A DNA stretch of 32,000 bases, taken from Polynucleobacter necessarius (GTDB lineage Bacteria > Pseudomonadota > Gammaproteobacteria > Burkholderiales > Burkholderiaceae). Under the pieces are notes generated by a model. That model ran no database searches. It was not told the DNA's origin and was given only the letters and a program-made list of their open reading frames with translations. Positions 2,832 through 29,006 of the stretch are shown here, piece after piece. Position 1 is the stretch's first letter. Every line of letters starts with the position of its first letter. The stretch covers positions 546,164 through 578,163 of the forward strand of contig NZ_LT606950.1 of the NCBI RefSeq assembly GCF_900095195.1, in the 5' to 3' direction. The translations under genes were made by a program, and so were the position numbers.

Positions 2832-2908
2832 GCGGCTGTAGCTCAGCTGGATAGAGTACTTGGCTACGAACCAAGGGGTCGTGGGTTCAATTCCTGCCAG
2901 CCGCACCA
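2832..2908 (+). tRNA. tRNA-Arg (anticodon ACG)
   Basis: Hand-folded cloverleaf. Acceptor stem gcggctg/cagccgc. D-arm gctc-agctggata-gagt. Anticodon stem cttgg/ccaag with loop ctACGaa. T-arm gtggg-ttcaatt-cctgc, which has two G-U pairs. A 3' CCA is encoded. Confidence 0.9.
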
Positions 2909-3002
2909 TCTCATTAGGGGTCTAGTTTGAAAACTGGGCCCTTTTCATTTTGGAGTATTTCACGAAGGTTTCTTGTGGATACCTTCTTGATAAAATCTCA
3001 AA

Positions 3003-4502
3003 ATGTCTTCAAAGCCCATATCTGATACCACTCTACCCAATAGCACCCACGGCGCGGTAGATGTCATTTTGGATACCGCATATCAAGGAATCAGCCCAAA
3101 AAACTGGGCTAGCCTGTTTGACTTGGCTCGTAAATCCCAGTTACCAGAATTTATTGCTAATCTGTTCGCTGGCGAACATGTCAACCAAAGCGAAGATCGT
3201 CCGGCCTTGCATTCAGCCTTGCGCAATCTCTCCAAAACACCAGTGATTCTGGATGGTAAAGATGTCATGCCAGCGGTGACTGATGTTTGGAAACGAATGG
3301 AGGCGCTTTGCAATAAATGGGTTGGCGTAACGGATGTCATTCATATTGGTATTGGTGGTTCTGACTTTGGCCCCCGCCTTGCGATTGAAGCACTGGCTCA
3401 CGTCCCCAAACTTGAAAGCCGCGGTATGCGCATGCATTTCTTGGCCAACATTGATACGGCAGAATTAGCTCGCATTTTGGACAAAGCGCAACCCAATAGC
3501 ACGCGTGTGGTGATTGTGTCGAAGTCATTCACCACCTTAGAAACCACCATGAACGCTAAGGCTGTTGTGGCTTGGCTAAAGGCCCATGGGTGTACCAAGG
3601 GTCAAATTAGCAAAGCCTTATTTGCGGTAACGGTCAACATCCCTGCTACCAAAGAGTTTGGCGTCGAAGAAGACCATATTTTCCCTTTCTGGGATTGGGT
3701 AGGCGGTCGATATTCCGTCTGGTCTGCCGTTGGATTGCCGATAGCACTGCAATATGGCTTTAAGACCTTTGAAGAGTTTCTAGCAGGCGCACATGCCATG
3801 GATTTGCATTTTAAGAGTGCGCCACTTGAAGAGAATCTCTCTGTCATTATGGCACTCGCCCTGCTCTATCAACAACAAAAACGCGATGTCAAAGCCTACG
3901 CTGCCATTCCGTATGCTGATGCTCTGGATTGGTTTCCGAGATGGTTGCAACAACTGGATATGGAAAGCAATGGCAAGAGTATTGGCATGGACGGCAACCC
4001 AGTTAAATACTCTTCCCCAGTTGTTTTTGGTAGTGCCGGAAGTAATGCACAGCACTCCTACTTCCAACTGTTTCATCAAGGCCCAGAGGTCATTCCAATT
4101 GACTTTATTGCCGTGCGCAAACCCATGAGCGATCGACCCGAGGCCATTGCCCATCACCGCATCCTGCTCTCGAATTGCTTGGCGCAAGCCCAAGCCTTAG
4201 CGCATGGTAAATCGGACAGCAACCCTAATAATGTTTACCCTGGCAAGCGCCCGAGCAATTTACTGCTCCTACCAGAACTCAATGCGTTTTATTTAGGCGC
4301 TCTACTCGTCCTTTACGAAAACCGTGCTGCCACTTTAGGCGCTCTCTGGAATATCAATAGCTTTGATCAACCTGGCGTAGAATACGGCAAGGTCTTGGCC
4401 AAGCCTATTGAGGCTGCGTTAAGTAGTGGCTCTAGCGATATTGTTGCCAATGAAAATATTGATGCGGTAACCGCCACTCGTATCAATCTTTTAAATAGTT
4501 AA
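3003..4502 (+). CDS. pgi: glucose-6-phosphate isomerase
   Basis: 499-aa ORF with PGI motifs 'IGIGGSDFGPR', 'SKSFTTLETTMNA', 'WDWVGGRYSVWSAVGL', 'QQLDMESNGKS', 'NAQHSYFQLFHQG' and 'FDQPGVEYGK'. It is shorter than typical ~545-aa proteobacterial enzymes and more divergent. Confidence 0.85.
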   Translation: MSSKPISDTTLPNSTHGAVDVILDTAYQGISPKNWASLFDLARKSQLPEFIANLFAGEHVNQSEDRPALHSALRNLSKTPVILDGKDVMPAVTDVWKRMEALCNKWVGVTDVIHIGIGGSDFGPRLAIEALAHVPKLESRGMRMHFLANIDTAELARILDKAQPNSTRVVIVSKSFTTLETTMNAKAVVAWLKAHGCTKGQISKALFAVTVNIPATKEFGVEEDHIFPFWDWVGGRYSVWSAVGLPIALQYGFKTFEEFLAGAHAMDLHFKSAPLEENLSVIMALALLYQQQKRDVKAYAAIPYADALDWFPRWLQQLDMESNGKSIGMDGNPVKYSSPVVFGSAGSNAQHSYFQLFHQGPEVIPIDFIAVRKPMSDRPEAIAHHRILLSNCLAQAQALAHGKSDSNPNNVYPGKRPSNLLLLPELNAFYLGALLVLYENRAATLGALWNINSFDQPGVEYGKVLAKPIEAALSSGSSDIVANENIDAVTATRINLLNS

Positions 4503-4529
4503 CGCAATCAACTTAAGAACAGAATTTCC

Positions 4530-5915
4530 ATGAAACTCTCTCCATCGATTTTTAAAGCTTATGACATTCGCGGCATTATCGATGAGACTCTCGATCCCTC
4601 GATTGCAAAATTAATCGGTCAGGCCTTTGGCACCGAAATGCGCAATCTCGGTGAAACAGAGATTGTGATCGGCAGAGATGGTCGCTTATCGAGCCCAAGC
4701 CTCATTGAAGCATTAACTGAGGGTCTTTTATCCACAGGCATCAATGTGATCGATTTGGGTATGGTGGCTACGCCAATGGTGTACTTTGGTGCGAATCAAG
4801 TGCTCGATGGTAAAAAGCCAAAATCCGGCATCATGATTACAGGCAGCCATAACCCGCCAAATTACAACGGCTTCAAAATGGTTCTGGGTGGCTCAGCCAT
4901 ATACGGCGAGCAAATTCAGGCATTGCGCAAACGCATTGAAGCAACAGATTTTGTTTCGGGGCATGGAAACCGCTCTACCTTTGATATCTTCCCGATGTAC
5001 CTGAAACATATTGTTGGCGATGTGAAATTAGCCCGCCCTCTCAAGATTGCCGTGGATTGTGGCAATGGTGTTGGCGGCGCATTTGCTGGTCAATTGTTTA
5101 GAGCCATGGGTTGCGAAGTGCAAGAACTCTTTTGCGAGGTGGATGGTCATTTTCCGAATCACCATCCCGATCCAGCACATCTTGAGAATCTGCAAGACCT
5201 AATTAAAAACTTACAAACCACGGATAATGAGCTCGGTCTTGCCTTTGATGGCGACGCCGATCGCTTGGGTGTAGTGACCAAAGACGGTCAAGTGATCTTC
5301 CCCGATCGCCAGATGATGCTTTTTGCAAAGGACGTACTCTCCAGAAATCCGGGTGGCCAGATTATTTACGACGTGAAGTGCACTCGTAATCTTGCCAGCT
5401 GGGTAAAGCAACATGGTGGTGAGCCGCTGATGTGGAAAACTGGCCATTCGTTAGTGAAAGCCAAGCTCAAAGAAACTGGCGCCCCTCTTGCTGGTGAAAT
5501 GTCAGGACATATTTTCTTTAAGGATCGTTGGTTTGGTTTTGATGATGGTCTATACACCGGTGCACGTTTACTAGAGATTCTGTCCAAAAAAAAAGATCCT
5601 AATAAAGCACTTAATGACTTACCAAATGCTATCTGCACCCCAGAATTACAACTGGTTTGCGCCGAAGGCGAGCCTTTTGTTTTACTAGAAACGATTAAAG
5701 CCAATGCGAAGTTCCCCACATCTGAGTCCATTAATACTATTGATGGCGTGCGCGTGGAATACAAAGATGGTTTTGGTCTCGCAAGGCCATCCAATACCAC
5801 TCCGGTGGTAGTGATGCGCTTTGAAGCAGATAGTGAAGCAGCCATTGCGCGCATTCAGGCGGAGTTTAAAGCGGTGTTGTTGGCTGCTAAGCCAGATGCA
5901 ACGTTGCCGTTCTAG
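4530..5915 (+). CDS. phosphomannomutase/phosphoglucomutase (alpha-D-phosphohexomutase family)
   Basis: 461-aa ORF with the active-site serine loop 'TGSHNPPNYNGFK', the metal loop 'FDGDADRLG' and the sugar loop 'GEMSGHIFF'. It starts 27 nt after pgi and is probably co-transcribed. Confidence 0.9.
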   Translation: MKLSPSIFKAYDIRGIIDETLDPSIAKLIGQAFGTEMRNLGETEIVIGRDGRLSSPSLIEALTEGLLSTGINVIDLGMVATPMVYFGANQVLDGKKPKSGIMITGSHNPPNYNGFKMVLGGSAIYGEQIQALRKRIEATDFVSGHGNRSTFDIFPMYLKHIVGDVKLARPLKIAVDCGNGVGGAFAGQLFRAMGCEVQELFCEVDGHFPNHHPDPAHLENLQDLIKNLQTTDNELGLAFDGDADRLGVVTKDGQVIFPDRQMMLFAKDVLSRNPGGQIIYDVKCTRNLASWVKQHGGEPLMWKTGHSLVKAKLKETGAPLAGEMSGHIFFKDRWFGFDDGLYTGARLLEILSKKKDPNKALNDLPNAICTPELQLVCAEGEPFVLLETIKANAKFPTSESINTIDGVRVEYKDGFGLARPSNTTPVVVMRFEADSEAAIARIQAEFKAVLLAAKPDATLPF

Positions 5916-5951: not shown

Positions 5952-7077
5952 ATGACCTCAACCGCTAGTGCTCCAATCGCCTTTGATTATCCCCAACAAG
6001 ACTCAGCGGGGGTTACTTGCACTGCCCAAGCTTGGGCCAAGGTTCCCCCTCATTTGGCTGGACCAGAGAAGGCAGCAGTCGTTGCTCGCATTAAACAGTT
6101 GCTTGTGGAAAAAGATGCTGCGTTAGTCGCTCACTACTATGTGGATGGAGATATTCAAGATTTAGCACTGGAGACCGGCGGCTTTGTGGCGGATTCCTTA
6201 GAGATGGCACGTTTTGGCAAAAATCATTCCGCCAAGAATTTAATTGTTGCTGGTGTGCGCTTTATGGGTGAGACTGCCAAGATTCTGAGCCCTGAAAAAC
6301 GCATCTTTATGCCCGACTTGGATGCAACGTGCTCTCTTGACTTAGGCCGTGATGCATCCGACTTTGTAAGGTTTCGTGCTTTGCATCCCGATCGCGTGGT
6401 GGTTTACGCCAATACCTCAGCCGCTGTTAAAGCTCAGGCCGACTGGATGGTGACCAGCTCTTGCGCCCTAGCAATTGTTCATCAATTGAAAGTAGAAGGC
6501 AAAAAAAATCCTCTGGGCACCCGATCGTCACTTAGGTAGATATATTCAGGAACAAACTGGCGCTGATATGTTGCTCTGGAATGGTGCCTGTATCATCCAT
6601 GATGAATTCAAGGCGGCTGAGTTAGAGATTCTGAAAGCTGCGCACCCTAATGCCAAAATCTTGGTTCACCCTGAATCACCACAAGCCGTAGTTGATTTAG
6701 CGGATGTGGTGGGATCTACTTCAGCCATGATTAAAGCCGTCGTCGACGGCACCGCAACTGAATATATTGTGGCAACCGATAAGGGCATCTTGCACCGCAT
6801 GCGTCAGTTAGCTCCGAATAAAAAACTCATTGAAGCACCTACAGCGGGTAATGGTGCAACCTGCAAGAGCTGCGCCCACTGCCCCTGGATGGCCATGAAT
6901 GGCTTGCAAGGCATTTTAGATTGCCTAGAAAATGCTTCCGGCGAAATCTTTATCAATGAGCCAATTCGAGTAGAGGCGCTCGGTTGCATTGAACGTATGC
7001 TCGATTTCACTAAAAATCACCCCGATCTTCTTGCCAAAGCACAGCATGGCTTTGTTAAGAATATTGGCGCCGCTTAG
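5952..7077 (+). pseudogene. nadA: quinolinate synthase NadA, frameshifted
   Basis: ORFs 5952..6539 and 6568..7077 are the two halves of NadA ('[12 protein letters not shown]', 'ATCSLDLG', '[12 protein letters not shown]' / 'GACIIHDEF', '[13 protein letters not shown]'). The frames join across an A8 run at 6501-6508. With A7 the reading is '..[31 protein letters not shown]..'. This is the only lesion I saw. Confidence 0.85.
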
Positions 7078-7146
7078 AATTCATTTCATTTAGCGTTTGT
7101 TCATTACTCATCATTGTTCATTTGGTCACTCTTCTTCAATTTATTC

Positions 7147-8003
7147 ATGTTTGATTTCAACGAAACCTTAGAGCAAGCTCGTCAACGCAATATTCACGAT
7201 GCCTTGATGGAGGATATGGGCATCTGCGATTGGACCGCGAAATTAGTTCCCAGTAAAGTTGTTCAGGCGCAATTGATTGTGCGCCAAGATGCGGTGCTCT
7301 GTGGTGTGGATTGGTTTGAGGGCACGCTGAAGAAATTAGACCCCAACGCCAAAATCACCTGGCATTACATCGAGGGCGATATGATGGAAACAGACACCAA
7401 GGTCTGCGATATCTCTGCGGATGCTCAAGCTCTGCTCTCCGCTGAGCGCACTTGTATCAATTTTTACAAACTCTGTCTTGGACTGCCAGCATCACCCGCC
7501 AACACGTTGATGCCATTGCTGGGGCCAGCCCGAATCCAAAAGGTTGCGCCGTTCTCGATACGCGCAAGACCATTCCTGGACTACGGCAAGCGCAAAAGTA
7601 TGCCGTACGAATTGGCGGTGGCCAAAACCAGCGGCTTGCCCTCTGGCATGGCATTTTGATTAAAGAAAATCATATCGCCGCCGCTGGAAGCGTCACTGCT
7701 GCACTTAAGAATGCGCAAGCTCTCAATTCTGGGGTGGATATTCAGATTGAGGTTGAGAATTTTGACGAACTTGAAGAAGCTTTGGCTGCAGGTGCTAAAA
7801 GTATTTTGATTGACAACTTTGATACCGAGCAAATGAAACAAGCGGTAGCCATCACGGCTGGACGTGCGCTCTTAGAAGCCTCTGGCGGTATTAATCTGGA
7901 TCAAATGCGTGCGATTGCCGCTGCTGGAGCGAATCGCATTTCTCTTGGCAAACTCACCAAGGATGTAATTGCTGTCGACTTCTCAATGCGTATTTTGGGA
8001 TAA
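7147..8003 (+). pseudogene. nadC: nicotinate-nucleotide diphosphorylase (quinolinate phosphoribosyltransferase) NadC, frameshifted
   Basis: ORFs 7114..7659 and 7452..8003 overlap. The frames join at the T5 run 7461-7465, and T6 would give 'SAERTCINFLQTLSWTASITRQHVDA'. The downstream part has 'LDTRKTIPGLR..KYAVRIGGGQN' and 'IKENHI'. The likely start is the ATG at 7147. Confidence 0.85.
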
Positions 8004-8008
8004 CTTAT

Positions 8009-9630
8009 TTACGCTTCCTGCGAAGTGTCGCTAGTTTCAACTTGTGGCGTCAAAATCGGTGGGTATGATACAGCCCAAGTTCCTGGGTAATCGCGACTGT
8101 AATGCAATCCCTGCTCTCACGACGCATCAAGGCTGAACGCACGATAAGCTCTGCACATTCAAGCAAATTTCGCAATTCAATCAAGTCGCGAGTCACTTTA
8201 AAATTAGCGTAATACCCCTGCACCTCATAACGAAGTAACTTAATACGGTGCAGCGCGCGATCTAGTCGACGATTCGTTCGCACAATACCAACGTAGTTCC
8301 ACATGAGAGAACGTAATTCATCCTAGTTATGGGCAATCACCACCTGCTCGTCCGCATCCTCGACTTGACTCTCGTCCCATAGGGGTAGGCTTGGCATTGC
8401 TGGCGTCTTCAATCCGGAGATATCTTCAGCGGCAGCTTTGCCAATCACGACGCATTCCAATAAAGAGTTGCTTGCAAGGCGATTCGCGCCATGCAATCCA
8501 GTGTAAGTGGCCTCACCAACAGCATACAAACCTGGTAAGTCAGTGCGCCCCTTCAGGTCAGTGACGACACCGCCACAGGTGTAATGCGCTGCTGGAACGA
8601 CAGGTATCGGCTCTTTAGGATATCTAATCCCAGACTTAAACAACGCGCATAGATCATCGGGAAATGTTCTTTGATAAATGCTTCACCTAAATGAGTGGTG
8701 TCTAGGCAAACATAATCTAAGCCGTGCTTTTTCATTTCGAAGTCAATGGCACGGGCCACAATATCGCGAGGAGCGAGCTCATTACGCTCATCATGCTCGG
8801 GCATAAAACGTGTGCCATCTGGTAATTTAAGCAAGCCACCCTCGCCGCGCATGGCTTCGGTAATCAAAAATGTGCGATCACTTGGGTGGTAAAGGCATGT
8901 AGGATGAAATTGGATAAATTCCATATTGCCCACGCGACAACCAGCACGCCAGGCCATTGCAATTCCATCGCCCGTGGCTGTATCGGGGTTGCTGGTGTAG
9001 CGATAGACCTTACCGACACCACCAGTCGCAAGCACTACCGACTTAGCAGAAATGGTTTCCACGCGATTGTTTTTTATGTCGAGCGCATAGACTCCATAAC
9101 AACGATTAGGTTTTGTGCGCTGTGTTTTTGCATCCAAATGACGATTAGTAATGAGGTCCAAAGCAATCCAATTATGAGACTTTGCCTTATCAAGTAACAC
9201 CTCATGAATCGCTTTACCAGTTGCATCCGCAGCATGAGCAATTCGGCGATGGCTATGCCCACCCTCACGTGTGAGATGCAAGCCCATCGGTCCTGACTTA
9301 TCTTCTGTAAATGGAACGCCCTGCTCCACCAACCATTTAATCGCCTGAGCACTTTCTTCGGCGATATAACGTGCGGTTGACTCCACCACTAAACCCGCGC
9401 CCGCATTTAAGGTGTCTGCCACATGAGCATCAATACTGTCATGCTCTTGGTCGACAACACCTACGATGCCACCCTGAGCCCAAGCAGTTGCCAACTTCAT
9501 TTAAGCCTCGTTTAGCCATCAAAATGACGGGTTGCGTCTCTGCCATATGCAAAGCAACCGTCAAGCCTGCTAAACCGGCTCCGATAATCAGAACCGGTAA
9601 ATCTGCCTGAGACTGGGAAGAAGTTGGTGT
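8009..9630 (-). pseudogene. nadB: L-aspartate oxidase NadB, multiply disrupted and missing its start
   Basis: Four fragments on the minus strand. The FAD-binding N-terminus 'DLPVLIIGAGLAGLTVAL' sits in the tail of ORF 9439..9960. Then come 8553..9500 ('AWAQGGIVGV..DTLNAGAGL', 'RGEGG'), 8323..8643 ('[13 protein letters not shown]', '[15 protein letters not shown]') and 8050..8304. Lesions are frameshifts near 9495 and 8617, TGG->TAG at 8323-8325 ('[13 protein letters not shown]'), and a -1 shift in the C3 run 8109-8111 (one more base restores '[12 protein letters not shown]'). The restored frame ends at the stop 8009-8011. Confidence 0.85.
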
Positions 9631-9636
9631 GGGAAT

Positions 9637-11880
9637 GCCCACTTCACCCCGACGAGATTGAATAGTAATTGCATCCCCAGCGGAGACACCCAATTGCGCC
9701 ATATCTTCACCATTCATAGATACCGTTGCCATTGGCTCAATTGCATCGAGCACGATTGCACGGCGCGTCATACTGCCAGTGTGCCAATGCTCTAACTGGC
9801 GTCCAGTGATCAAGACAAATTGGTATTCAGAATCTGGTCGCTCGTTCGCAGGAATAATGTCTGCTGGCACCAGTTTGGCTTTGCCATCGGGTGTGGCAAA
9901 GATGTCATCAAATACGATAGGACGACCTGGGTCATCAAGTGACAAACAAGAATAGGTCACATAGATTCTTTTTCTAGATGCCCCCAGGAAATCCCTTTAA
10001 TGGCACCCATGCATCGCTTGGCGCATTTCTTCATACACTTCAGCTACACCAGCATCAGGACCTTGGCAATTCCAATTGAGGCCCATGCGTTTCGCAATCT
10101 CTTGAATAATCCACAAATCAGGCTTTGCTTCACCCGGAGGCTCAACGGCTTTCTTGCCTAACTGCACCATACGGTCCGTGTTGCTGGCGGTACCGACTTT
10201 TTCAGGCCAAGCGCTCGCAGGCAAAACGACATCAGCCAATAGCGCAGTTTCCGTCATGAAAATATCTTGCACCACTAAATGCTCAAGCGAAGCTAAGGCA
10301 TGACGCGCATGATTTAAATCGGGGTCGCTCATCGCAGGATTCTCACCCTCTACATACATGCCACGAATCTTGTCGGGGTCGCTGTCGGGTGCAGTAATCT
10401 TGTGCATGATTTCAACAACGGTGTAACCCGGCCTCTTATCAAGCGGCGTGTTCCAAAACTTCTCAAACCAAGCATGCGCCTCTGGGTTATCAACCCGTTG
10501 GTAATTGGGGAACATCATCGGAATCAAACCGGCATCACTAGCGCCCTGCACGTTATTTTGCCCGCGCAATGGTTGAAAACCGGATCCAGGCTTACCAATT
10601 TGGCCAGTAATGCTGACCAAGGCAATGAGGCAACGTGCATTGTCGGTGCCGTGTACGTGCTGACTAACACCCATGTCCCACAAACTCATGGCAGACTTGG
10701 TTGTCGCAAACTCTCGGGCTACTTCACGCAAGGTTTCCGCCGGAATGCCCCAAATTGGGGCCATCGCTTCAGGGCTATAGCCTTTGATGTTTTCTTTTAA
10801 GGCTTCATAGTTATTCGCGCGATTAGCGATGAAATCTTTATCCGCCAAGCCCTCTTCAATGATCGTGTAGATCATGGCATTGAGCATCGCCACATCCGTA
10901 TCCGGCTTGAACTGCATGGTACGCCATGCATGTTTACTAATCTCCGTTTTGCGTGAATCGCATAATACGAGCTTTGCACCTCGTTTAGCAGCGTTCTTAA
11001 ACCAGGTGGCAGCAACTAGATGGTTTGCCGTTGGGTTGGAACCAATCAACATAATTAAGCTGGAATGCTCAACATCATTAACCTGGTTACTCACCGCACC
11101 AGAACCTACACCCTCAAGCGGTGCCGCCACTGATGACGCGTGGCATAGACGAGTACAGCGGTCGACGTTATTACTTCCAAAACCAGTGCGTACCAATTTT
11201 TGAAATAGATACGCTTCTTCGTTGCTTCCTTTTGCAGAACCAAAGCCAGCTAAGACTTTGAGACCATGTTTGTCTTTGAGCTCTTTGAGTTTGCCGCCTG
11301 CAAAATCGAGCGCTTCCTCCCAAGTGGCCTCACGGAAGATATCGGACCAATCTTGTTTACCTTCCAAAATCGATTCATCTTTGGGTACGCCAGGTTTACG
11401 AATGAGTGGCTTAGTTAAACGTTTTGGGTTATGGATGTAATCCATACCAAAACGACCTTTTACACAAAGACGATTGTGATTAGCTGGACCATCACGACCC
11501 TCAATACTGACAATCTTGTCATTTTTAATGTTATAGGTGATCTGGCAACCAACACCACAGAGTGGACAAACTGAATCTACCTTGCGGTCAACCGTTTGCG
11601 ATCTAATTAAACCTTTTGGCATCAACGCGCCTGTTGGGCAAGTTTGTACGCACTCACCGCAGGCAACTCAGGTACTTTCACCCATCGAATCATTGAGATC
11701 AAACACAATCTCACTGTGTGCACCGCGCATTGCGTAGCCGATCACATCGTTGACTTGTTCTTCGCGGCAAGCACGCACACAACGATTGCATTGGATACAC
11801 GCATCTAAGTTCACCGCCATCGCAGGATGCGAGACATCGCTCGCCACCTTCTCACAACGCAGCGCCTTGAGCTCTGGGCG
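9637..11880 (-). pseudogene. fdsA: NAD-dependent formate dehydrogenase alpha subunit (FdsA/molybdopterin oxidoreductase), truncated at both ends with internal stops
   Basis: Three fragments: 11668..11901 ('NLDACIQCNRCVRACREEQ'), 9997..11625 ('CPLCGVGCQ', Mo-ligand region 'CTRLCHASSVA') and 9439..9960 ('ITGRQLEHWHTGSMTRR'). There is an in-frame TGA at 11668-11670 and an in-frame TAA at 9997-9999. The N-terminal 2Fe-2S part and roughly the last 80 codons are missing. End coordinates are approximate. Confidence 0.8.
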
Positions 11881-11884
11881 AACA

Positions 11885-12139
11885 GCAGGCCTTGATCCCA
11901 TTACATCTGCTGATTTGGATCAGACCATTATGGACTTGTCTAAAAATTTAGGCATTACCTTTGTGATTGTGTCGCACGAGTTAGCGAGTATCTATGCGAT
12001 CGCTGATAAGGTCATTATGTTGGACAAGTGCGCTAAGGGCATTATTGCCGAAGGTGATTCCAAGGTATTGCGCGATATCAGCACAGATCCCCGCGTACAT
12101 CAATTCTTTAATCGCATTACGACTAAGGACGCAGCATGA
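11885..12139 (+). pseudogene. 3' fragment of an MlaF-like ABC transporter ATP-binding protein
   Basis: Only the region after Walker B survives: 'AGLDPITSADLDQTIMDLSKNLGITFVIVSHELASIYAIADKVIMLD...DPRVHQFF'. Sequence upstream of ~11885 is antisense fdsA. The stop overlaps the next gene's ATG (ATGA at 12136-12139). Confidence 0.75.
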
Positions 12140-12991
12140 GTAATAACTCAAACCCTAACTATTTCCGACTTGGCGTATTTGTCATTGCCGCGATCGCCGT
12201 CCTAATTTCGGTGATCTTGATCTTTGGCTCAGGACAATTGTTTAAGAAATCGTTTTATATCGAAACCTACATCAAGCAATCGGTCACCGGTTTAGATGTT
12301 GGAGCGGCAGTACGATTTCGGGGTATCAAGATTGGCCAAGTGAGCATGATAGGGCTTACAGGCGATATTTACGAGGAAGAGATTCCCTTTAACAAATGGT
12401 CTACGCTCACGAGTCAAGTCTATGGGTATCACGGGTGTGAATTACATCGAATTCGATTTTTTGCCAAAAAGCGCCAGTCAATATACTGAATTACCATACA
12501 GCTGGAAGCCAAAGTATCCCGTCATCCCATCGTTTCCTAACCAAGCTGATGAGATTATTTTTGGCATTCAAAAGCTGATTGATGGCATGAATCAAATCAA
12601 TATCGATGGCACTCAACAAAAGTTTGATCAGCTATTGGGTAATCTCAATAGCTTGATGGCAGGTGATGGCAAAAATAATCAAGGCTTAATTAACTCCGTA
12701 AAAGACTTGAATGTCATTTTGGAGCGCATTGCCAAGGTAACCGATAAAGACGAACTAAATGTTTTGATGCGCGAACTCGTAGGCGCTATGGTTTCCTTGC
12801 GTCAAACTATCACGACGATGCAGGGTGACACACAATTGACTATTGAAAACCTGAAGTAAACCAGCGAGCCACTCAACGAGTTTTCCCGAATTGCGAGCCA
12901 GTCGCCAGCCAGTTTGATTTGAGGTGAGCCGCCTCCGCGGATTACGCCACCCATGAATGGCACTCAGACTCAACTAGGAGCAGCAAAATGA
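12136..12991 (+). pseudogene. MCE/MlaD-family substrate-binding protein, frameshifted with two in-frame stops
   Basis: ORFs 12136..12489 (TM anchor 'LGVFVIAAIAVLISVILIF', 'LDVGAAVRFRGIKIGQV') and 12422..12859 ('MGITGVNYIEFDF') are in different frames, with the shift near 12390-12420. The reading continues through TAA 12857-12859 and TGA 12920-12922 ('SLI*GEPPP') to a stop at 12989-12991, which overlaps the next ATG. Confidence 0.75.
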
Positions 12992-13600
12992 TTAAATACC
13001 TCTTTGCTGGCATTACCACTGTCGTTCTGACTGCATGCTCTTTGCCCACGCGTGCGCCTGTGACACCAACCAGTTGGTTGGTGGCTCCACAACGTGCGGG
13101 CGCTCCATTGAAACAACACAGCGACTACTGGCTGAAGATTGGTTCCGTTAGTGTTGCTCCACCGTTTGATGGCAAGTCCCTGGTGTATCGCATCAGCGAT
13201 CAGCGTTACGAAAAAGATTTTTATAACGTGTATTCGACTATTCCATCGGAGATGATTGGTAATGCGGAGCGAGAGTGGATCAATAAATCGAACATCTTTG
13301 CCGTGGCTGTTGGTCAAAACAACAGCTTCTTTCCGTACTACAGTGAATGAGTTTTATGGAGACTATCGTGTTCGTCCCGAGGCTGTTGTCAGTGTGGAGT
13401 TTTTTCTCTCGGTAACTAATGCCGGAAAAACGAACCCATTGATTGGCTCAAACCGTTACACCAGGCGGATTGCTCTAAAGGACAATACCCCCGAAGCATT
13501 GGTATTAGGACAGCAACAAGCGCTGGCTGAAATCTTCAAACAATATGAAGAGCAGCTCTATAAGTACGCTGGTAATCTGCCAAAACCTTTGGGGCAATAA
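12988..13600 (+). pseudogene. ABC-type transport auxiliary lipoprotein (PqiC/DUF330-like), frameshifted
   Basis: The lipobox 'VVLTAC' is at the N-terminus. ORFs 12988..13350 and 13256..13600 join near 13320-13345 ('..FFPYY|TTVNEFYGDYRVRPEAVV..'). The combined ~204 codons and the position after an MCE gene fit this family. The family assignment is from memory. Confidence 0.6.
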
Positions 13601-13612
13601 GGGACATCTTCG

Positions 13613-14615
13613 ATGAAGATCATTGCAATCCCATGGAAGTATCTGGCTATAAGTGCCTTAGCAATCATCGGCTTTGGTGCAACACCGCAGGTCCGGGCTC
13701 AATCACAGGCACAACCTTTTCCTGTTAAACCGATTCGTTTCATCGTCCCGTTTGCCCCTGGGGGGGAGCACAGATATTATCGCGCGCGCTGTTGGTGATG
13801 CCCTAGGTCGTCAGCTGGGTCAGCCGGTCATTGTTGAAAACAAGGCGGGTGGAGGCGGTTCCGTAGGGGCATTAGAGGTCATGCGTGCGCCAAAGGACGG
13901 TTACACGATTGGTATGGCAACCGTATCGACTACGGCAGCCAATCCGGCGATTAATCCGAAGATTGGTTATGACCCCATTACGGATTTCACAGCCATTAGC
14001 AATATTGCTACAACTCCCAACATCATTGCTGTCAATCCATCCTTTCCGGCAAAAGACTTCAAAACGTTTATGGAGGTCCTCAAAACCAATCCTGGAAAGT
14101 ATTCCTACTCCAGTTCAGGAACGGGTGGTATTGGCCATTTGCAAACCGAGCTTTTTAAAAGCTTAACGGGAGTATTTATCGTACATATCCCGTATCGTTG
14201 TGCCGGCCCCGCATTGGCCGATACGGTTGGTGGTCAGGTCTCCATGATTTTTGATAACTTGCCATCGTCCTTGTCATTTATTAAAGATGGCAAGCTGGTG
14301 CCGATTGTTGTGGCTGCTCCAAAACGATTGGCACAATTGCCCAATGTGCCAACGTTTTCAGAAGTCGGCCTTGCTCCCGTAAATCGGATGGCTTATTACG
14401 GCTTGCTAGGTCCTGCAGGTATGCCCAAGGACGTGGTGGATAAATATTACTCAGCCTTGAAAGTGGTTGTGAATGATCCCGCTGTGAAAAAACGCATCGA
14501 AGATACGGGTTCCATCATTAATGCAAGTGGGCCAGAAGCGTTTTCAAAAGAAATCAAGGCAGAATTTGCTGTTTACAAAGAGGTCGTAGCAAAGCAAAAG
14601 CTCGCTTTAGACTAG
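13613..14615 (+). pseudogene. Bug/TctC-family tripartite tricarboxylate transporter substrate-binding protein, frameshifted
   Basis: Signal peptide 'MKIIAIPWKYLAISALAIIGFGATPQVRAQ', then 'PIRFIVPFAPGG|STDIIARAVGDAL..VENKAGGGGSVG'. ORFs 13613..13798 and 13674..14615 join across a G7 run at 13760-13766, and G6 restores the frame. The total is about 334 codons, as expected for the family. Confidence 0.85.
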
Positions 14616-15454: not shown

Positions 15455-15470
15455 TTTAATCATCAGTCTT

Positions 15471-17908
15471 ATGCAGGGCTTCATACAACGATTTAGGCAG
15501 GATCTGCGCTCTAAAGAGCTCAAGTGGTTATTGCTGGCGCTCATTATCTCGGTCTGCGCGATGACCAGTGTCAGCTTTTTGGCGGATCGTATGCATCGCG
15601 CCTTTGAATTTGATGTGCGCCAGTTACTTGCCGCAGACCTTCTCATTGCTGCCGATCAGCCGTTGCCTGAGCGGTTTATTGATGAAGCAAAAATTCGTCA
15701 ACTGCACATTGCACAGACTATTGTGTTCCCGAGCATGGCAACCGTGGGAACGCAAAGTAAGCTCGCTTCGATAAAGGCGGTCAGCCCAGAGTATCCCTTG
15801 CGCGGTGCATTGGAAGTTGAGAGATCAGCGACTTCAGCAGTCGGACTAGTCAGCGGATCGGTATATGTGGATCCTGCTTTGCTCAATAATTTACGTGCCA
15901 AGTTAGGGGACTCCATTCGTCTTGGCGATCGACAGTTTGTTATCTAAGGGGTGTTAGTTAAGGAGCTTGACCGTGGCGCTGGCTTTATGAATTTTGCCTC
16001 ACGCATCATGATTTCCCTATCGGATCTTCAATCGACTGGGCTGATTGGGTTGGGTAGTCGAGTGACTTATCATTTACTTCTTGCGGGATCCGATAAATCA
16101 ATCGCAGATTATCAACAGTGGGCAAATCAATATATTGAGACGAAAAAAATTCGTGGCCTGCGCATCGAGACACTGGAGAACGCGCAACCCATGATGCGCA
16201 AGACATTAGAGCGGGCAGAGCAGTTTCTATCCTTGGTAGCGTTGTTGACGGCCATGATTGCTGCGGTGGCGATCGGATTATCCGCAAGGCGCTACATGAT
16301 AGGCCAGGCTGATGCCTGCGCTGCGCTTAAATGCTTTGGTGCTACCAGGTGGGCAATTATTCAAAAAGAATTCACTACGCTATTGCTGCTGGGGATGTTG
16401 TCGGCTGTAATTGGCTCGGCTTTTGGCTACCTTGTTCAACATGTATTGACGGGATTACTGGGTAATCTTGTAGTAGGCAATCTGCCATCTGTTTCCATCG
16501 TGCCAGTACTGTGGAGTACGGTTTTTGCGTGGGTCTTATTGTTTGCATTTGCTGGGCCGCCGCTTCTCAATTTGGCAAATGTGTCGCCTATGCGATTAAT
16601 ACGCAAAGGGATTGGTATTGCAACTCAGGCTACTGTGTGGATCACGTTATTTACCGCAGTAGTTTGTGTAGGACTCATTTGGGTAGTTGCAAAGGATGCG
16701 AAGTTGGCACTATGGGTTGGCATGATCTTTGCAGGAGCGCTAATGCTTTTCGCGATCTTGGCGCGCTTCATATTATGGCTACTATCCAAAATACAAACAT
16801 CATACTTCCCGATACGCTTCGCGATTACAGCGATGAATCGACGCGCTGGATTTGCAGTAATGCAAATGAGTGCATTAGCGATTTCCATCATGGCAATTTT
16901 ACTGATTCTATTGCTGCGACAAGATCTTTTGAGCACGTGGCAAGGCAATATTCCGGCCGATGCGCCGAATCGCTTCATGATTAATATTCAAGGGGATCAA
17001 AGAGAGGGTATTGCACTTGCTTTACAACAAGGCGGCTTATCTAAGCCTGATTTTTATCCGATGATTCGAGGAAGGCTGATTGCGGTAAATGGTCGAGATA
17101 TTGCTCCATCCGATTACTCAGAGGAGAACGCGCGTCGCTTGGTTGATCGAGAATTTAATCTGTCCTATACCGAGCAATTGCCGATTGCTAATCGAATCGT
17201 TGCTGGGGGGGTGGATCAACGGAGCAAAACCACAAATTTCTATGGAGACGGGAATTGCAAAGACTCTCAAGCATCAGTTGGGCGATCAGCTGACCTTTGA
17301 GGTTGCTGACGAGCGTGTCGTGGCGCCCATTACCTCGTTGCGCAAATTGGACTGGGGTTCTATGCGAGTGAACTTCTTTGTCATCATGCCGCCAGCGCTA
17401 TTAAACAATATGCCGCAGTCTTGGATTACATCCTATTACCAAAGTCCAAACAAAGATGTTCTGGATTACTCCTTAAGCCAAGCTTATCCCAACATCACTC
17501 TGGTCGATGTTTCGGCATCGCTACAGCAAATTCAGGAGGTAATGGATAAGTTATCCGCCGCACTGGGTTTGTTGTTTGCATTCACCATTATTGCTGCTAC
17601 TCAAGATGAGCGTTTTCGAAACGCTGCCTTGTTAAAAGTATTAGGCGGATCTCGCAGTGTATTGAGTCAAATCGTCAGAATCGAATTGCTCTGTATTGGT
17701 TTTGTTGCTGGATTGCTGGGTGGTCTGGCTGCGGCAGTAGCTCGCTTGGGCGCTAGGTCGTTATGTCATGGAAATTGACTTTAATGCCTTTGCGCAATCC
17801 ATTTTGCTGGGTATCGCATTTGGTGTGATTGCTTCGTTAACTGCGGGCTATCGCTTTCAGAATCGCATACAAGCCACTACGGCAGTGGAGTGTTTACGCG
17901 AGGCTTAA
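15471..17908 (+). pseudogene. YbbP-like double-FtsX-domain ABC transporter permease, disrupted
   Basis: Fragments 15426..15947, 15951..17300 and 17089..17778, plus an unlisted tail ('WALGRYVMEIDFNAFAQSILLGIAFGVIASLTAGYRFQNRIQ..') ending at the stop 17906-17908. Together they make about 812 codons. Lesions are an in-frame TAA at 15945-15947, a +1 in the G7 run 17205-17211 (G6 gives 'NRIVAGGWINGAKPQISMETGIAK'), and a shift near 17743. The likely start is the ATG at 15471. No cognate ATPase is in the window. Confidence 0.8.
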
Positions 17909-18441
17909 GACAGGGTAACGACGCTCTTAGGAAGCTCCACCAACCTAGAGCCCGCTAAGCGATCCGGCAAGTTCTGGCGCAAAGTGGATACGTTGCGATC
18001 GAAATAAATGCTGATCGGCCAAAGAAATAATGCCACCGTAAAGAGCATCTCAATAATCTGCCATTTTTCTAAATGGAAGAGCGATTGCAAGATCGCGCAC
18101 GGAACAACCCAAAGAGATCCATAGATATAGCGCCAGATCGCTTGACGGCGTGAAAGGTTAAACCCATCCCGACCAATCATGCGCACTCGCCAAGTTTGCA
18201 TCGCCAACGTTTGGCCGGATTTTGTCCAATACCAAACGAAGTAAATACCAAGCACTGCATATAGATATAAAAACGTTAACCAGTTTGGCAAGGAAACGCC
18301 AAATAATATTCCGAGTCCCAGGTTGGTCAGCAGAAATGTAAAGGCAACCACGCCAAGTAATACGAGTTGCTCATAGAGGGAGCAAGATACGCGTCGCCAA
18401 AATCCCGGCGCAGGTAACGCATTAAGTTCTGCAGGGGTCAT
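17905..18441 (-). CDS. RDD-family membrane protein
   Basis: 178-aa ORF with several hydrophobic segments and an RDD-like layout ('WRRVSCSLYEQLVLLGV', 'GQTLAMQTWRVRMIGRDG'). Its start overlaps the upstream gene's stop (ATGA at 18438-18441). Confidence 0.7.
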   Translation of the reverse strand: MTPAELNALPAPGFWRRVSCSLYEQLVLLGVVAFTFLLTNLGLGILFGVSLPNWLTFLYLYAVLGIYFVWYWTKSGQTLAMQTWRVRMIGRDGFNLSRRQAIWRYIYGSLWVVPCAILQSLFHLEKWQIIEMLFTVALFLWPISIYFDRNVSTLRQNLPDRLAGSRLVELPKSVVTLS

Positions 18442-19098: not shown

Positions 19099-19560
19099 TT
19101 ACTTGCTTGGAGACAGTTCAGTAGCGCTATCTTCCGAATCTGAGAGTGGGCCATTTTTAAGGAAAGCCAAAAAGCCACTATCTGCATATGCATCGGGTGG
19201 AACGTCATCTGTCAGAAGAGCAACGTCCACTTCAGCAGTATCCGTTAGACGAGAATCGTTTTGCCAATGAGCAATGCCGATGAGTCCAAAAACGAGCACC
19301 ATTAATGGCGCCACCCAACTGGCGGTATCCCAAATGCCATTTGAGGAAGAGGTGTAATTGCCAATAGATCCTGCAAAGACAGCCTTTTGCGCACGCACCT
19401 TCTCAGCCTTACGGACTGAGAGCGCTTTCATGCGAGCAGCATGAAGACGATCTTTAATGCCAATAGGCAGGGCTTGTGCGCCTTGGTTTAACAGGGCGGC
19501 ACTGGCTCGACCGAATTGGTCGGCTTGGGTCTGGCTTAGGGCTTCGTTAAGGTGTTTCAC
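19099..19560 (-). CDS. DUF3619-like single-pass membrane protein (possible anti-sigma partner)
   Basis: 153-aa ORF with one TM segment, 'WVAPLMVLVFGLIGIAHW'. Its GTG start overlaps the sigma-factor stop (GTGA at 19557-19560), which suggests translational coupling. Confidence 0.55.
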   Translation of the reverse strand: MKHLNEALSQTQADQFGRASAALLNQGAQALPIGIKDRLHAARMKALSVRKAEKVRAQKAVFAGSIGNYTSSSNGIWDTASWVAPLMVLVFGLIGIAHWQNDSRLTDTAEVDVALLTDDVPPDAYADSGFLAFLKNGPLSDSEDSATELSPSK

Positions 19561-20127
19561 AGGGTAATTCCTTTTAATTTCAATGCTTTATCTAAGGATT
19601 GGGTTGCTCTCGAACAATGCGTTTTGACACTACCTTCGCTGCAATTCATGGCTTTGGCAGTCTCCGTAATACTTAGCTCATCCTAATAACGCATCAGGAA
19701 GGCTTCTCGTTGACGTACAGGTAATTTAGCGATTTCTGACTCCAAAGCCTGTAAAAGCTGACTTTGCTCCAGTTTTTGGGCCCCATCTTGGTGAATTTCA
19801 CTATCGTCTGCAGCAGAAAGCGACTCTAGAGGGTCAAAATCCTCGTTTTCATCGGATTTCTTGCCCATGCTGGAAAAGAGGGTGACCCATGCATTGCGAA
19901 CCTTTTGGCGTCGAAACCAGTCATGAATTCGGTTTTGCAGGATTCTGGTGAAAAGCAAGTGGTAGTTCTGCAACAGGTTTATCACCGTATTTTTCAGCCA
20001 ACTTAATCATGGCATCTTGAACAATATCGAGCGCAGCATCGTCGTCACGCACGGCATAGACTGCCTGTTTGAAGGCGCGCTGCTCGACGCTACTCAAAAA
20101 GTCAGATAGTTCTTGGGCTGATGCCAT
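19557..20127 (-). pseudogene. ECF (sigma-70 family) RNA polymerase sigma factor, frameshifted with a nonsense codon
   Basis: Region 2 is in ORF 19921..20127 ('EQRAFKQAVYAVRDDDAALDIVQDAMIKLAEKY') and continues in another frame in ORF 19683..19985 ('LLFTRILQNRIHDWFRRQKVR'). The shift is near 19955-19965. The region 4 HTH is interrupted by TGG->TAG at 19683-19685 ('REAFLMRY*DELSITETAKAMNCSEGSVKTHCSRA'). Confidence 0.8.
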
Positions 20128-27622: not shown

Positions 27623-27906
27623 ATGTCTTCTTATAAAGAGCTCTTGGCTCAGCGCGAGCAATTAGATAAGCAAATCAAAGAAGCAATTGCCCGTGAAAAG
27701 GCTGATGGTATTGCAAAAGCAAAAGCCATTATTGAGTAGTACGGTCTAGTAGCATCCGATTTATTTAGTCGTAAGGCTGGTGCGAATAGTGTAAGTGGCA
27801 AGGTAGCCCCCGAATACCGTAATCCATACACTGCGAGACTTGGACTGGTCGCGGTAAAGCGCCAAAATGGATCGAAGGAAGAGATCGCAGTAATTTCCCG
27901 ATCTAA
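27623..27906 (+). pseudogene. H-NS-like nucleoid-associated protein, nonsense plus frameshift
   Basis: Not in the ORF track as a single ORF. Hand translation from the ATG at 27623 gives the coiled-coil N-terminus 'MSSYKELLAQREQLDKQIKEAIAREKADGIAKAKAIIE', then TAG at 27737-27739, then 'YGLVASDLFSRKAG..KVAPEYRNPYT'. After a 1-nt loss near 27833 comes the H-NS DNA-binding motif 'ETWTGRGKAPKWIEGRDRSNFPI*', with the stop at 27904-27906. Confidence 0.75.
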
Positions 27907-27930
27907 TTTGACATTAAGTGGGTAATTAAC

Positions 27931-28055: not shown

Positions 28056-28706
28056 TCATGACGGCTGGAATGGGGTGATGATGTGGTCCTGATCTGGACT
28101 AGTTGCGGGATAGCCAATAGTCAGCGGATTGAGATCAATTAAGCCATTTTCTAGCTCTTCCTTAATGCTATCGGTGAGATGGGGTCGGCTGCTGTGGTTC
28201 TCGTCTGCTAGGGCAACAACGCCAGGGTGAAGCTTGATAAAACCTTCATCCACCAGAATAGGTATACGCTGTGTGTCCTTGTTTTTACTCAGATAATGGA
28301 TTAGATGTACTTGCTCTACCGGGGGAATGAGTGCGTCCAAAAAGATGACGTCTGGCGTAATCGAGACCGCCTTCATCAGCCCCTCTAGGCTATCTACAGC
28401 CACTTCCATTTCTACCTCCAAATGCCAGTCAACAATCGATTTTAGGGGTTCTTCGCTATTTTCGGATCTTCGAAAGATGCCGATCGCAACGCAGTTTTGG
28501 GTGGTTTTCTGGCGCATCGCCCGTTTTCGTTTTTGTAGCTGTTGTTCAAGCGAGCTGGCCAATATTCGTCGATGACCCCCACGGGTTTTCCAGGCGATTA
28601 ATTTACCTAATTCAACCATTTTCTGAACGGCTCCCAGAGAAACCTGCAAAACTTTGGCGCTTTGTCTGGTGCTGAGATATTCCATTTCTGGCGTAATTGC
28701 TTTCAT
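28056..28706 (-). CDS. excisionase/MerR-type HTH DNA-binding protein with a C-terminal degenerate receiver-like domain
   Basis: 216-aa intact ORF. The N-terminus 'YLSTRQSAKVLQVSLGAVQKMVELGKLIAWKTRGGHRRI' resembles HTH_17/excisionase-type domains. The C-terminal part has an alternating beta/alpha pattern ('VAIGIF', 'PDVIFLDALIP', 'IPILVDEG') like CheY-type receivers, but lacks the N-terminal acidic pair. The domain call is made by eye. Confidence 0.55.
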   Translation of the reverse strand: MKAITPEMEYLSTRQSAKVLQVSLGAVQKMVELGKLIAWKTRGGHRRILASSLEQQLQKRKRAMRQKTTQNCVAIGIFRRSENSEEPLKSIVDWHLEVEMEVAVDSLEGLMKAVSITPDVIFLDALIPPVEQVHLIHYLSKNKDTQRIPILVDEGFIKLHPGVVALADENHSSRPHLTDSIKEELENGLIDLNPLTIGYPATSPDQDHIITPFQPS

Positions 28707-28883: not shown

Positions 28884-29006
28884 TCATGTTAAATTACTGC
28901 AGTAGTACCAGTATTTGCACAGATCAATTCGTGAAACGGTACAGCCGTGTAACGGATGGTTATAACCACAGTTTTTATTCGGGAAACCCGATGAAAGGTG
29001 AGCATC

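Follow-up and report, generated by a model that had tools for sequence, protein, structure and literature searches.

A run of eight disrupted genes and a relocated pgi-to-fdsA block in a reduced Polynucleobacter necessarius genome

Disrupted genes and their intact counterparts in free-living relatives

We analysed a stretch of 32 kb from Polynucleobacter necessarius contig NZ_LT606950.1 (positions 546,164 to 578,163, forward strand), referred to as a whole as the window, in which the region from 5952 to 14615 is split into short open reading frames (ORFs) on alternating frames. Eight consecutive genes can still be recognised there: nadA, nadC, nadB, fdsA, mlaF, mlaD, an ABC_trans_aux lipoprotein gene and a tctC/Bug binding-protein gene. 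Lesions were called by Pfam searches on the fragments and by tblastn with intact orthologues from free-living Polynucleobacter, with nucleotide alignments giving their positions. An initial annotation, made from the letters of the sequence, had described all eight genes as broken, and we found a frameshift, a nonsense codon or a truncation in every one of them (8 of 8). Lesions were also located in all three of the additional pseudogenes that it had listed, which encode a MacB/FtsX-type permease, an extracytoplasmic function (ECF) sigma factor and an H-NS-like protein (Table 1). All eleven loci, eight in 5952-14615 and three elsewhere in the window, are predicted to be inactivated, and our coordinates sum to the same ~11.9 kb of pseudogene in 32 kb that had been estimated at the outset.

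Table 1. Positions of the disrupted genes, the two rearrangement junctions and the relocated intact genes, numbered from the first nucleotide of the window (aa, amino acids; +1 and -1, single-base insertion and deletion)
Feature	Position	Strand	Domains or context	Lesions
Left junction	2981..2985		tRNA-Arg/greA-side intergenic DNA (formerly upstream of mlaE) joined 19 nt upstream of the pgi start	
pgi and pgm	3003..5915	+	inside the relocated block; Pfam full-length PGI; exact RefSeq matches	intact
nadA pseudogene (quinolinate synthase)	5952..7077	+	Pfam NadA in two halves; tblastn	+1, A7 to A8 run at 6501-6508; 3-bp in-frame deletion near 6395
nadC pseudogene (quinolinate phosphoribosyltransferase; 284 aa in relatives)	7147..8003	+	Pfam QRPTase N and C	-1 at 7460/7461 beside a T run (T5)
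nadB pseudogene (L-aspartate oxidase; 553 aa in relatives)	8015..9633	-	Pfam FAD_binding_2 and Succ_DH_flav_C, at least three pieces	+1 at 9494; 21-bp deletion at 9173; -1 at 8619; -1 at 8112
fdsA remnant (formate dehydrogenase alpha)	9634..11883	-	codons 141-890 of ~963; three Pfam pieces (molybdopterin oxidoreductase, its Fe4S4 domain, Molydop_binding)	both ends lost; TGC to TGA at 11668-11670; +1 at 10006; -1 at 9962
Right junction	11883..11885		fdsA codon 141 (minus) abuts mlaF codon 180 (plus), no DNA between	
mlaF remnant (ABC ATPase; 264 aa in relatives)	11885..12139	+		codons 180-264 only
mlaD (MCE) pseudogene (311 aa in relatives)	12136..12991	+	Pfam MlaD; tblastn	80-bp deletion at 12393; CAA to TAA at 12857; TGG to TGA at 12920
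ABC_trans_aux lipoprotein pseudogene (208 aa in relatives)	12988..13600	+		14-bp deletion at 13342
tctC/Bug binding-protein pseudogene (331 aa in relatives)	13613..14615	+	Pfam TctC	+1 in G7 run 13760-13766
MacB/FtsX-type permease pseudogene	15459..17905	+	outside the eight-gene run	TAA at 15945; +1 in G7 run 17205-17211; 30-bp deletion at 17589; +1 at 17743
ECF sigma factor pseudogene	19560..20127	-		+1 near 19955; TGG to TAG at 19685
H-NS-like pseudogene	27623..27916	+		CAG to TAG at 27737; frameshifts, one at 27832

Between the nad and fds genes, a deletion of ~600 bp removed the 3' end of fdsA, the intergenic DNA and the first codons of nadB, leaving the two remnants fused. In the free-living loci compared on this side (L001-L006 and L081), nadA-nadC-nadB-fdsA-fdsB are all intact, with fdsA orthologues of 959-964 aa. 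A scan for contigs matching the nadB fragment recovered the order pgi-pgm-nadA-nadC-nadB-fdsA-fdsB in intact ORFs on five Polynucleobacter contigs (L001-L005), the relatives having ~77% nucleotide identity among the matches listed. When a frame-corrected nadA translation was used as the query, more than 100 relatives, among the 120 clusters listed, had an intact NadA, mostly of 371-375 aa and with a best identity of 94%, and no interrupted NadA was among the matches listed. We considered selenocysteine as a reading of the fdsA TGA codon and rejected it, since orthologues carry a TGC or TGT cysteine codon at this site in uninterrupted ORFs. At the fusion itself, the fdsA remnant is in frame with the FAD-binding N-terminus of nadB (9439-9960, minus strand), giving a chimeric ORF of 173 aa that could be called as a protein.

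On the mla side we compared the free-living loci L083-L086, which include CP061286. The order spoT-greA-mlaE-mlaF-mlaD-aux-tctC-SDR-ftsX-RDD, with every gene intact, was found in CP061286 (MWH-UH25E) and in two further sources (mlaE, 396 aa; mlaF, 261-265; mlaD, 311; ABC_trans_aux, 208; tctC, ~330; SDR, 261; MacB/FtsX, ~830). Two of these three loci continue with DUF3106, DUF3619, ECF sigma (189 aa) and ilvIH genes, again all intact, and a shorter free-living contig (L084) has the same order without any disruption up to the start of tctC, where it ends. Of the 120 clusters that a query of joined fragments listed, most likewise contain an intact MlaD, of 304-311 aa. The free-living mla operon (mlaE-mlaF-mlaD-lipoprotein) is homologous to that of the window in both gene order and sequence. 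Unlike it, the window copy has mlaE displaced, mlaF truncated (mlaE and mlaF codons 1-179 are absent from the mla site) and the mlaD and lipoprotein genes disrupted, and is predicted to be non-functional. Combining tblastn, locus annotation and protein searches, each of the eleven genes is a single intact ORF in free-living Polynucleobacter at all loci examined, as the initial annotation had anticipated; it had also reasoned that the same interruptions in close free-living relatives would speak against decay, and none of these relatives carries them. As a separate observation, the window has just two G7 runs (in tctC and ftsX), and both are frameshift sites in pseudogenes, where relatives have GGTGG-like or GGGGAG sequences.

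Lesions shared with and private to a sister strain

Through the cluster mates of the window pgi and RDD genes we found a sister strain, here called R, which is represented by three independent assemblies (ERZ27248707, SRR32119647 and SRR8208349) and is 97-99% identical to the window at the nucleotide level. Four lesions are common to the window and R, namely the nadB -1 at 8619, the fdsA -1 at 9962, the fdsA TGA at 11668-11670 and the 30-bp deletion in ftsX, and these three genes were already dead in the common ancestor of the two strains. Six other window lesions are absent from R (nadB 8112, 9494 and the 21-bp deletion; fdsA +1 at 10006; ftsX +1 at 17205 and 17743), and its H-NS-like gene is intact (95 aa). 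R has in turn been damaged in its own way: large deletions have taken most of nadA and nadC, another runs from mlaE codon 173 to SDR codon 60, tctC is wholly deleted, the ECF sigma gene is lost, and small inversions have occurred in nadB, fdsA and fdsB. The four shared lesions, the six absent ones and the private deletions of R together indicate that the decay is real, stepwise and ongoing.

The rearranged DNA of R has some further detail. In contig L087 (14562-15420 and 17368-20640) the segment from fdsA codon ~909 to nadB codon ~186 is inverted, and the fragments of fdsB and of an acyl-CoA-synthetase-like gene are scrambled across the two strands. It seems that small inversions are common where DNA is decaying in this lineage, despite its lack of insertion sequences (ISs).

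When comparing the window with R, intact blocks (13.0 kb aligned) differ by 0.80% substitutions and 4 gap openings (0.3/kb), none of them frameshifting, and intact genes have a synonymous difference (pS) of 0.020 with a nonsynonymous-to-synonymous ratio (pN/pS) of 0.22. Pseudogene blocks (5.5 kb aligned) differ by ~1.4-2.9% substitutions, a range given for blocks of at least 450 bp, and by 28 gap openings (5.1/kb), such that indels per kb are ~16 times denser than in the intact genes. Pseudogene DNA thus diverges at approximately the synonymous rate, while the neighbouring intact genes are under purifying selection. Random sequencing error cannot explain this contrast in indels and substitutions. 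The contrast bears on the alternative of an otherwise normal genome whose apparent interruptions arose as errors of sequencing or assembly (homopolymer miscalls or chimeric joins), for which one can point to three frameshifts in long homopolymers (nadA A8, tctC G7 and ftsX G7) and to the nadC -1 beside a T run. However, homopolymer errors cannot account for the six nonsense substitutions, the deletions (14, 21, 30 and 80 bp) or the truncations, which extend over hundreds of bp, and the reading frame is kept across the A9 run of pgm and the A7 run of ilvI. In addition, the four lesions shared with R are identical in its independent assemblies, so that this comparison did not bring out the artefacts that the initial annotation had named as the other possible objection. 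We regard an artefactual origin as extremely improbable.

A second alternative concerns nadA, nadC and tctC, some of which might still be functional if transcriptional slippage or ribosomal frameshifting at the homopolymer restored the frame, as has been proposed for poly-A tracts of other endosymbionts. Each of the three carries one 1-bp indel, located in or next to a base run, and the flanking coding sequence retains 79-95% protein identity to free-living orthologues. However, the partner gene nadB has three frameshifts, one of them ancestral, which would leave nadA and nadC without substrate supply, and R, in which tctC is gone and little remains of nadA and nadC, shows that these genes are dispensable. 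The frameshift is conserved in no relative, all of them being in frame at these sites, and the mla genes beside tctC are multiply broken. We therefore consider such a rescue very unlikely and favour inactivation of all three genes.

Relocation of the pgi-to-fdsA block

Small lesions and deletions, to which the initial annotation had attributed the damage, account for most of the genes, but not for the truncations of fdsA and mlaF, which appear to be the two sides of one junction and not separate small deletions. Microhomology at this right junction amounts to at most 1-3 bp. At the left junction, 75 nt downstream of tRNA-Arg, the blastn match to the greA block extends as far as 2985 and that to the pgi block begins at 2982, coinciding with a CCTT microhomology (4-5 bp) that is present at both parental sites as compared in R. 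Between the two junctions, the window carries the segment that runs from pgi to fdsA codon 141 in inverted orientation, placed between tRNA-Arg and mlaF codon 180. Both R and the free-living strains have, in the orientation of spoT, the order fdsB, fdsA, nadB, nadC, nadA, pgm, pgi, a DAO gene and a second TctC gene, followed by hemN, rdgB, rph, yicC, gmk, rpoZ, spoT, greA, tRNA-Arg, mlaE, mlaF and mlaD. We take this order to be ancestral, which would make the relocation specific to the window strain.

We infer that the rearrangement proceeded either by two nested inversions, one with its endpoints at the pair of intergenic CCTT sites and a second with endpoints inside fdsA and mlaF, which would give the exact order of the window, or alternatively by one cut-and-paste event. 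The two-inversion model predicts that mlaE should survive elsewhere in the genome, and a 201-aa mlaE fragment (P0341, 96% identical to the mlaE of R) is recorded outside the window on a contig of the same 1,550,368-bp length. We rejected the idea that one simple deletion, running from fdsA to mlaF, had acted alone on an ancestor with the window order, because in R and the free-living strains the pgi block lies beyond hemN to spoT and in the opposite orientation, and because the mlaE fragment persists elsewhere. Both junctions, like the window-specific lesions, come from a single assembly, in keeping with the chimeric joins of the artefact explanation; their position at short microhomology instead of at repeats argues against such joins, and the mlaE fragment elsewhere fits a real relocation.

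The rearrangement does not appear to be IS-mediated, as no IS, transposase or long repeat lies at the lesions or junctions, and the junctions have only 1-5 bp of microhomology. For the window as a whole, repeat and domain scans agree with the earlier statement that no ISs or repeats were seen that could explain the damage: no inverted repeats were detected, the sole direct repeat is one 24-nt chance pair, and none of the ORFs scanned with Pfam has a transposase domain. Boscaro et al. reportedly described the P. necessarius endosymbiont genome STIR1 (CP001010), said to be of 1.56 Mb, in PNAS in 2013, and further symbiont genomes of the LT6069xx series in Nature Ecology and Evolution in 2017. 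The literature citing these genomes, a scope that lies outside both primary papers, does not describe the relocation of the pgi-fdsA' block.

The relocated pgi and pgm genes are 99.1-99.6% identical to those of R, with zero indels and a low pN/pS. The left junction puts pgi near the former distance of mlaE from the greA/tRNA-Arg-mlaE intergenic region. It could be imagined that the essential pgi-pgm pair is now driven by the former mlaE promoter, an IS-free, microhomology-mediated 'promoter capture' alongside partial slippage rescue of genes such as nadA with its A8 run; if true, decaying operons would be reusable as expression sites in early endosymbiont evolution. We find this doubtful, and it is unsupported by a promoter scan of the left junction because no sigma-70-like site was detected there, the scan returning one terminator-like hairpin after tRNA-Arg (2916-2943).

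Reductive decay and the surrounding genes

The source contig of the window has 1,550,368 bp, and ten intact window proteins are identical to RefSeq entries WP_114662219-233 (P. necessarius, taxid 576610). Four publications (PMC5018217, PMC5632650, PMC9539572 and PMC11253213) describe P. necessarius as an obligate cytoplasmic endosymbiont of Euplotes, with several origins of symbiosis from free-living Polynucleobacter ancestors. According to these publications, endosymbiotic genomes have 1.5-1.9 Mb, are rich in pseudogenes (~18%) and are devoid of mobile elements, free-living genomes are streamlined at 2.0-2.5 Mb, and GC content is ~45% in both lifestyles. The window was found to belong to Polynucleobacter and to a reduced genome, its 1.55 Mb falling within the published symbiont range and below the free-living genomes of at least 2.0 Mb. 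It resembles the P. necessarius endosymbiont genomes in species label, size, many pseudogenes and absence of mobile elements, and also in that separate lineages lose the same genes in parallel. We consider it highly probable that the window derives from an obligate endosymbiotic P. necessarius of the Euplotes cytoplasm and records reductive decay under relaxed selection, stepwise and continuing. The restriction to Euplotes would follow from the species label, the 1.55-Mb genome and the pseudogene load. The initial annotation, which had guessed at a Polynucleobacter-type, recently host-restricted symbiont, is supported in this respect by the P. necessarius matches, the genome size and the literature. 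Its implied link between GC content and symbiosis did not hold: GC is ~48% along the whole length of the window and 47.8% compared with 45-47% at homologous free-living loci, and is therefore not a symbiont effect. A GC content of ~48% is a trait of the genus and no sign of host restriction.

The genes could alternatively have been lost locally in a free-living, streamlined Polynucleobacter turned auxotroph (a Black Queen-type loss) and not in a host-restricted symbiont. Free-living Polynucleobacter are indeed streamlined themselves, with ~2 Mb and 45% GC, and the window carries no host information. Nevertheless, every free-living genome and metagenome contig examined keeps these genes intact, and selective streamlining yields compact, gene-dense DNA, not ~37% pseudogene. 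The 1.55-Mb source is moreover labelled P. necessarius and matches published symbiont sizes, and the same genes are decaying in two further 'P. necessarius' lineages. We give this alternative almost no credence and retain decay in an endosymbiont as the preferred explanation. Some points do weigh against the latter: gene inactivation is predicted from the DNA sequence; the endosymbiotic lifestyle is deduced from a database label and a 1.55-Mb genome; the rearrangement is seen in one assembly only; and for nadA, nadC and tctC the call turns on one 1-bp indel per gene, in or next to a run of A8, T5 and G7, respectively, that is not independently confirmed because R has deleted the matching sites.

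Under endosymbiotic decay, de novo synthesis of nicotinamide adenine dinucleotide (NAD; nadABC) and the NAD-linked formate dehydrogenase (fds) would no longer be selected in the Euplotes host, and neither would the Mla/MCE lipid ABC transporter, the TctC-type receptor, the MacB/FtsX exporter, the ECF sigma factor and the H-NS-like regulator. Destructive mutations in such unselected genes would not be purged and would accumulate neutrally; here they comprise indels of one base, nonsense substitutions, deletions ranging from 14 to ~600 bp and illegitimate recombination. Part of the lesions date to the common ancestor of the two sister strains and others are strain-specific, one of the latter being the event that carried the pgi-fdsA' block, inverted, into the mla operon, by which fdsA and mlaF would have been cut and mlaE displaced. 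Relaxed selection resulting from host dependence is the presumed cause. Eight pseudogenes in succession would be very unlikely if ~18% of genes were pseudogenes and independent of one another. In this genome such a run would nevertheless be unsurprising and less improbable than it looks, because selection would act on roughly four units, namely the nad pathway, the fds and mla operons and tctC, with one junction hitting two of them.

Sodalis glossinidius and Mycobacterium leprae are at an early stage of reductive evolution and have many recognisable pseudogenes. Serratia symbiotica (PMC3056288) likewise resembles the window in its many recognisable pseudogenes with small indels, stops and deletions. 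In all three, as in the window, losses fall mainly on transport, regulation and cofactor synthesis and core metabolism is kept. These recent symbionts and pathogens are typically IS-expanded, with ISs driving their rearrangements, whereas the window has no ISs or repeats and its junctions have 1-5 bp of microhomology.

Neither the phenomenon nor the genome is new to the literature, and no new system or mechanism is revealed. What we add is modest: a division of the lesions into those that are ancestral and those that are strain-specific, evidence for a neutral rate of divergence, and a microhomology relocation, free of ISs, that explains the fdsA and mlaF truncations. The window offers a clean example in which two strains ~1-2% apart resolve the first lesions (in nadB, fdsA and ftsX) from later ones, and in which rearrangements of an IS-free genome arise by microhomology-mediated illegitimate recombination, in support of the published view that P. 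necessarius can serve as a model of how endosymbiont genomes are reduced at the earliest stage. For annotation some caution is advisable, given that ORF callers will list spurious fragment 'proteins' here, the P0341 fragment of mlaE being one example.

The housekeeping genes of the window are full length, as had been noted before, with spoT truncated only by the window edge. According to Pfam and the ORFs, the full-length genes are greA, pgi, pgm, SDR, RDD, DUF3106, DUF3619, ilvI, ilvH, ilvC, psd, pssA, leuA, a 4HBT thioesterase gene, an HTH_17 gene and sucA. The RDD gene (17905-18441, minus strand) has 7 nonsynonymous differences to 1 synonymous difference from R (pN/pS ~2.2, from small counts), and selection on it may already be relaxed. 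The HTH_17 gene (28056-28706, minus strand) is an ORF of 216 aa in the window and is frameshifted to 141 aa in R (L090 523-948), with four indels between the two; it is decaying in R and not in the window. In LT606951.1 (L093 1-4657), a 1.93-Mb sequence labelled 'P. necessarius' with 77% nucleotide identity, ftsX, DUF3106, DUF3619 and ECF sigma are independently frameshifted, in line with the parallel genome reduction described in the literature, and the gene order after leuA differs, with rpsO-pnp in place of 4HBT, H-NS, HTH and sucA. An Rfam scan of the window returned a tRNA-Arg gene and a sucA motif and nothing else. The tRNA-Arg gene (anticodon ACG; 2832-2908, plus strand) lies within the 5' end of a long greA ORF call (2313-2909, 198 aa), the real greA probably being the shorter form of 166 aa that free-living annotations give. 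The sucA RNA motif (28922-29004, plus strand; 63 bits) is located immediately upstream of the intact sucA gene.

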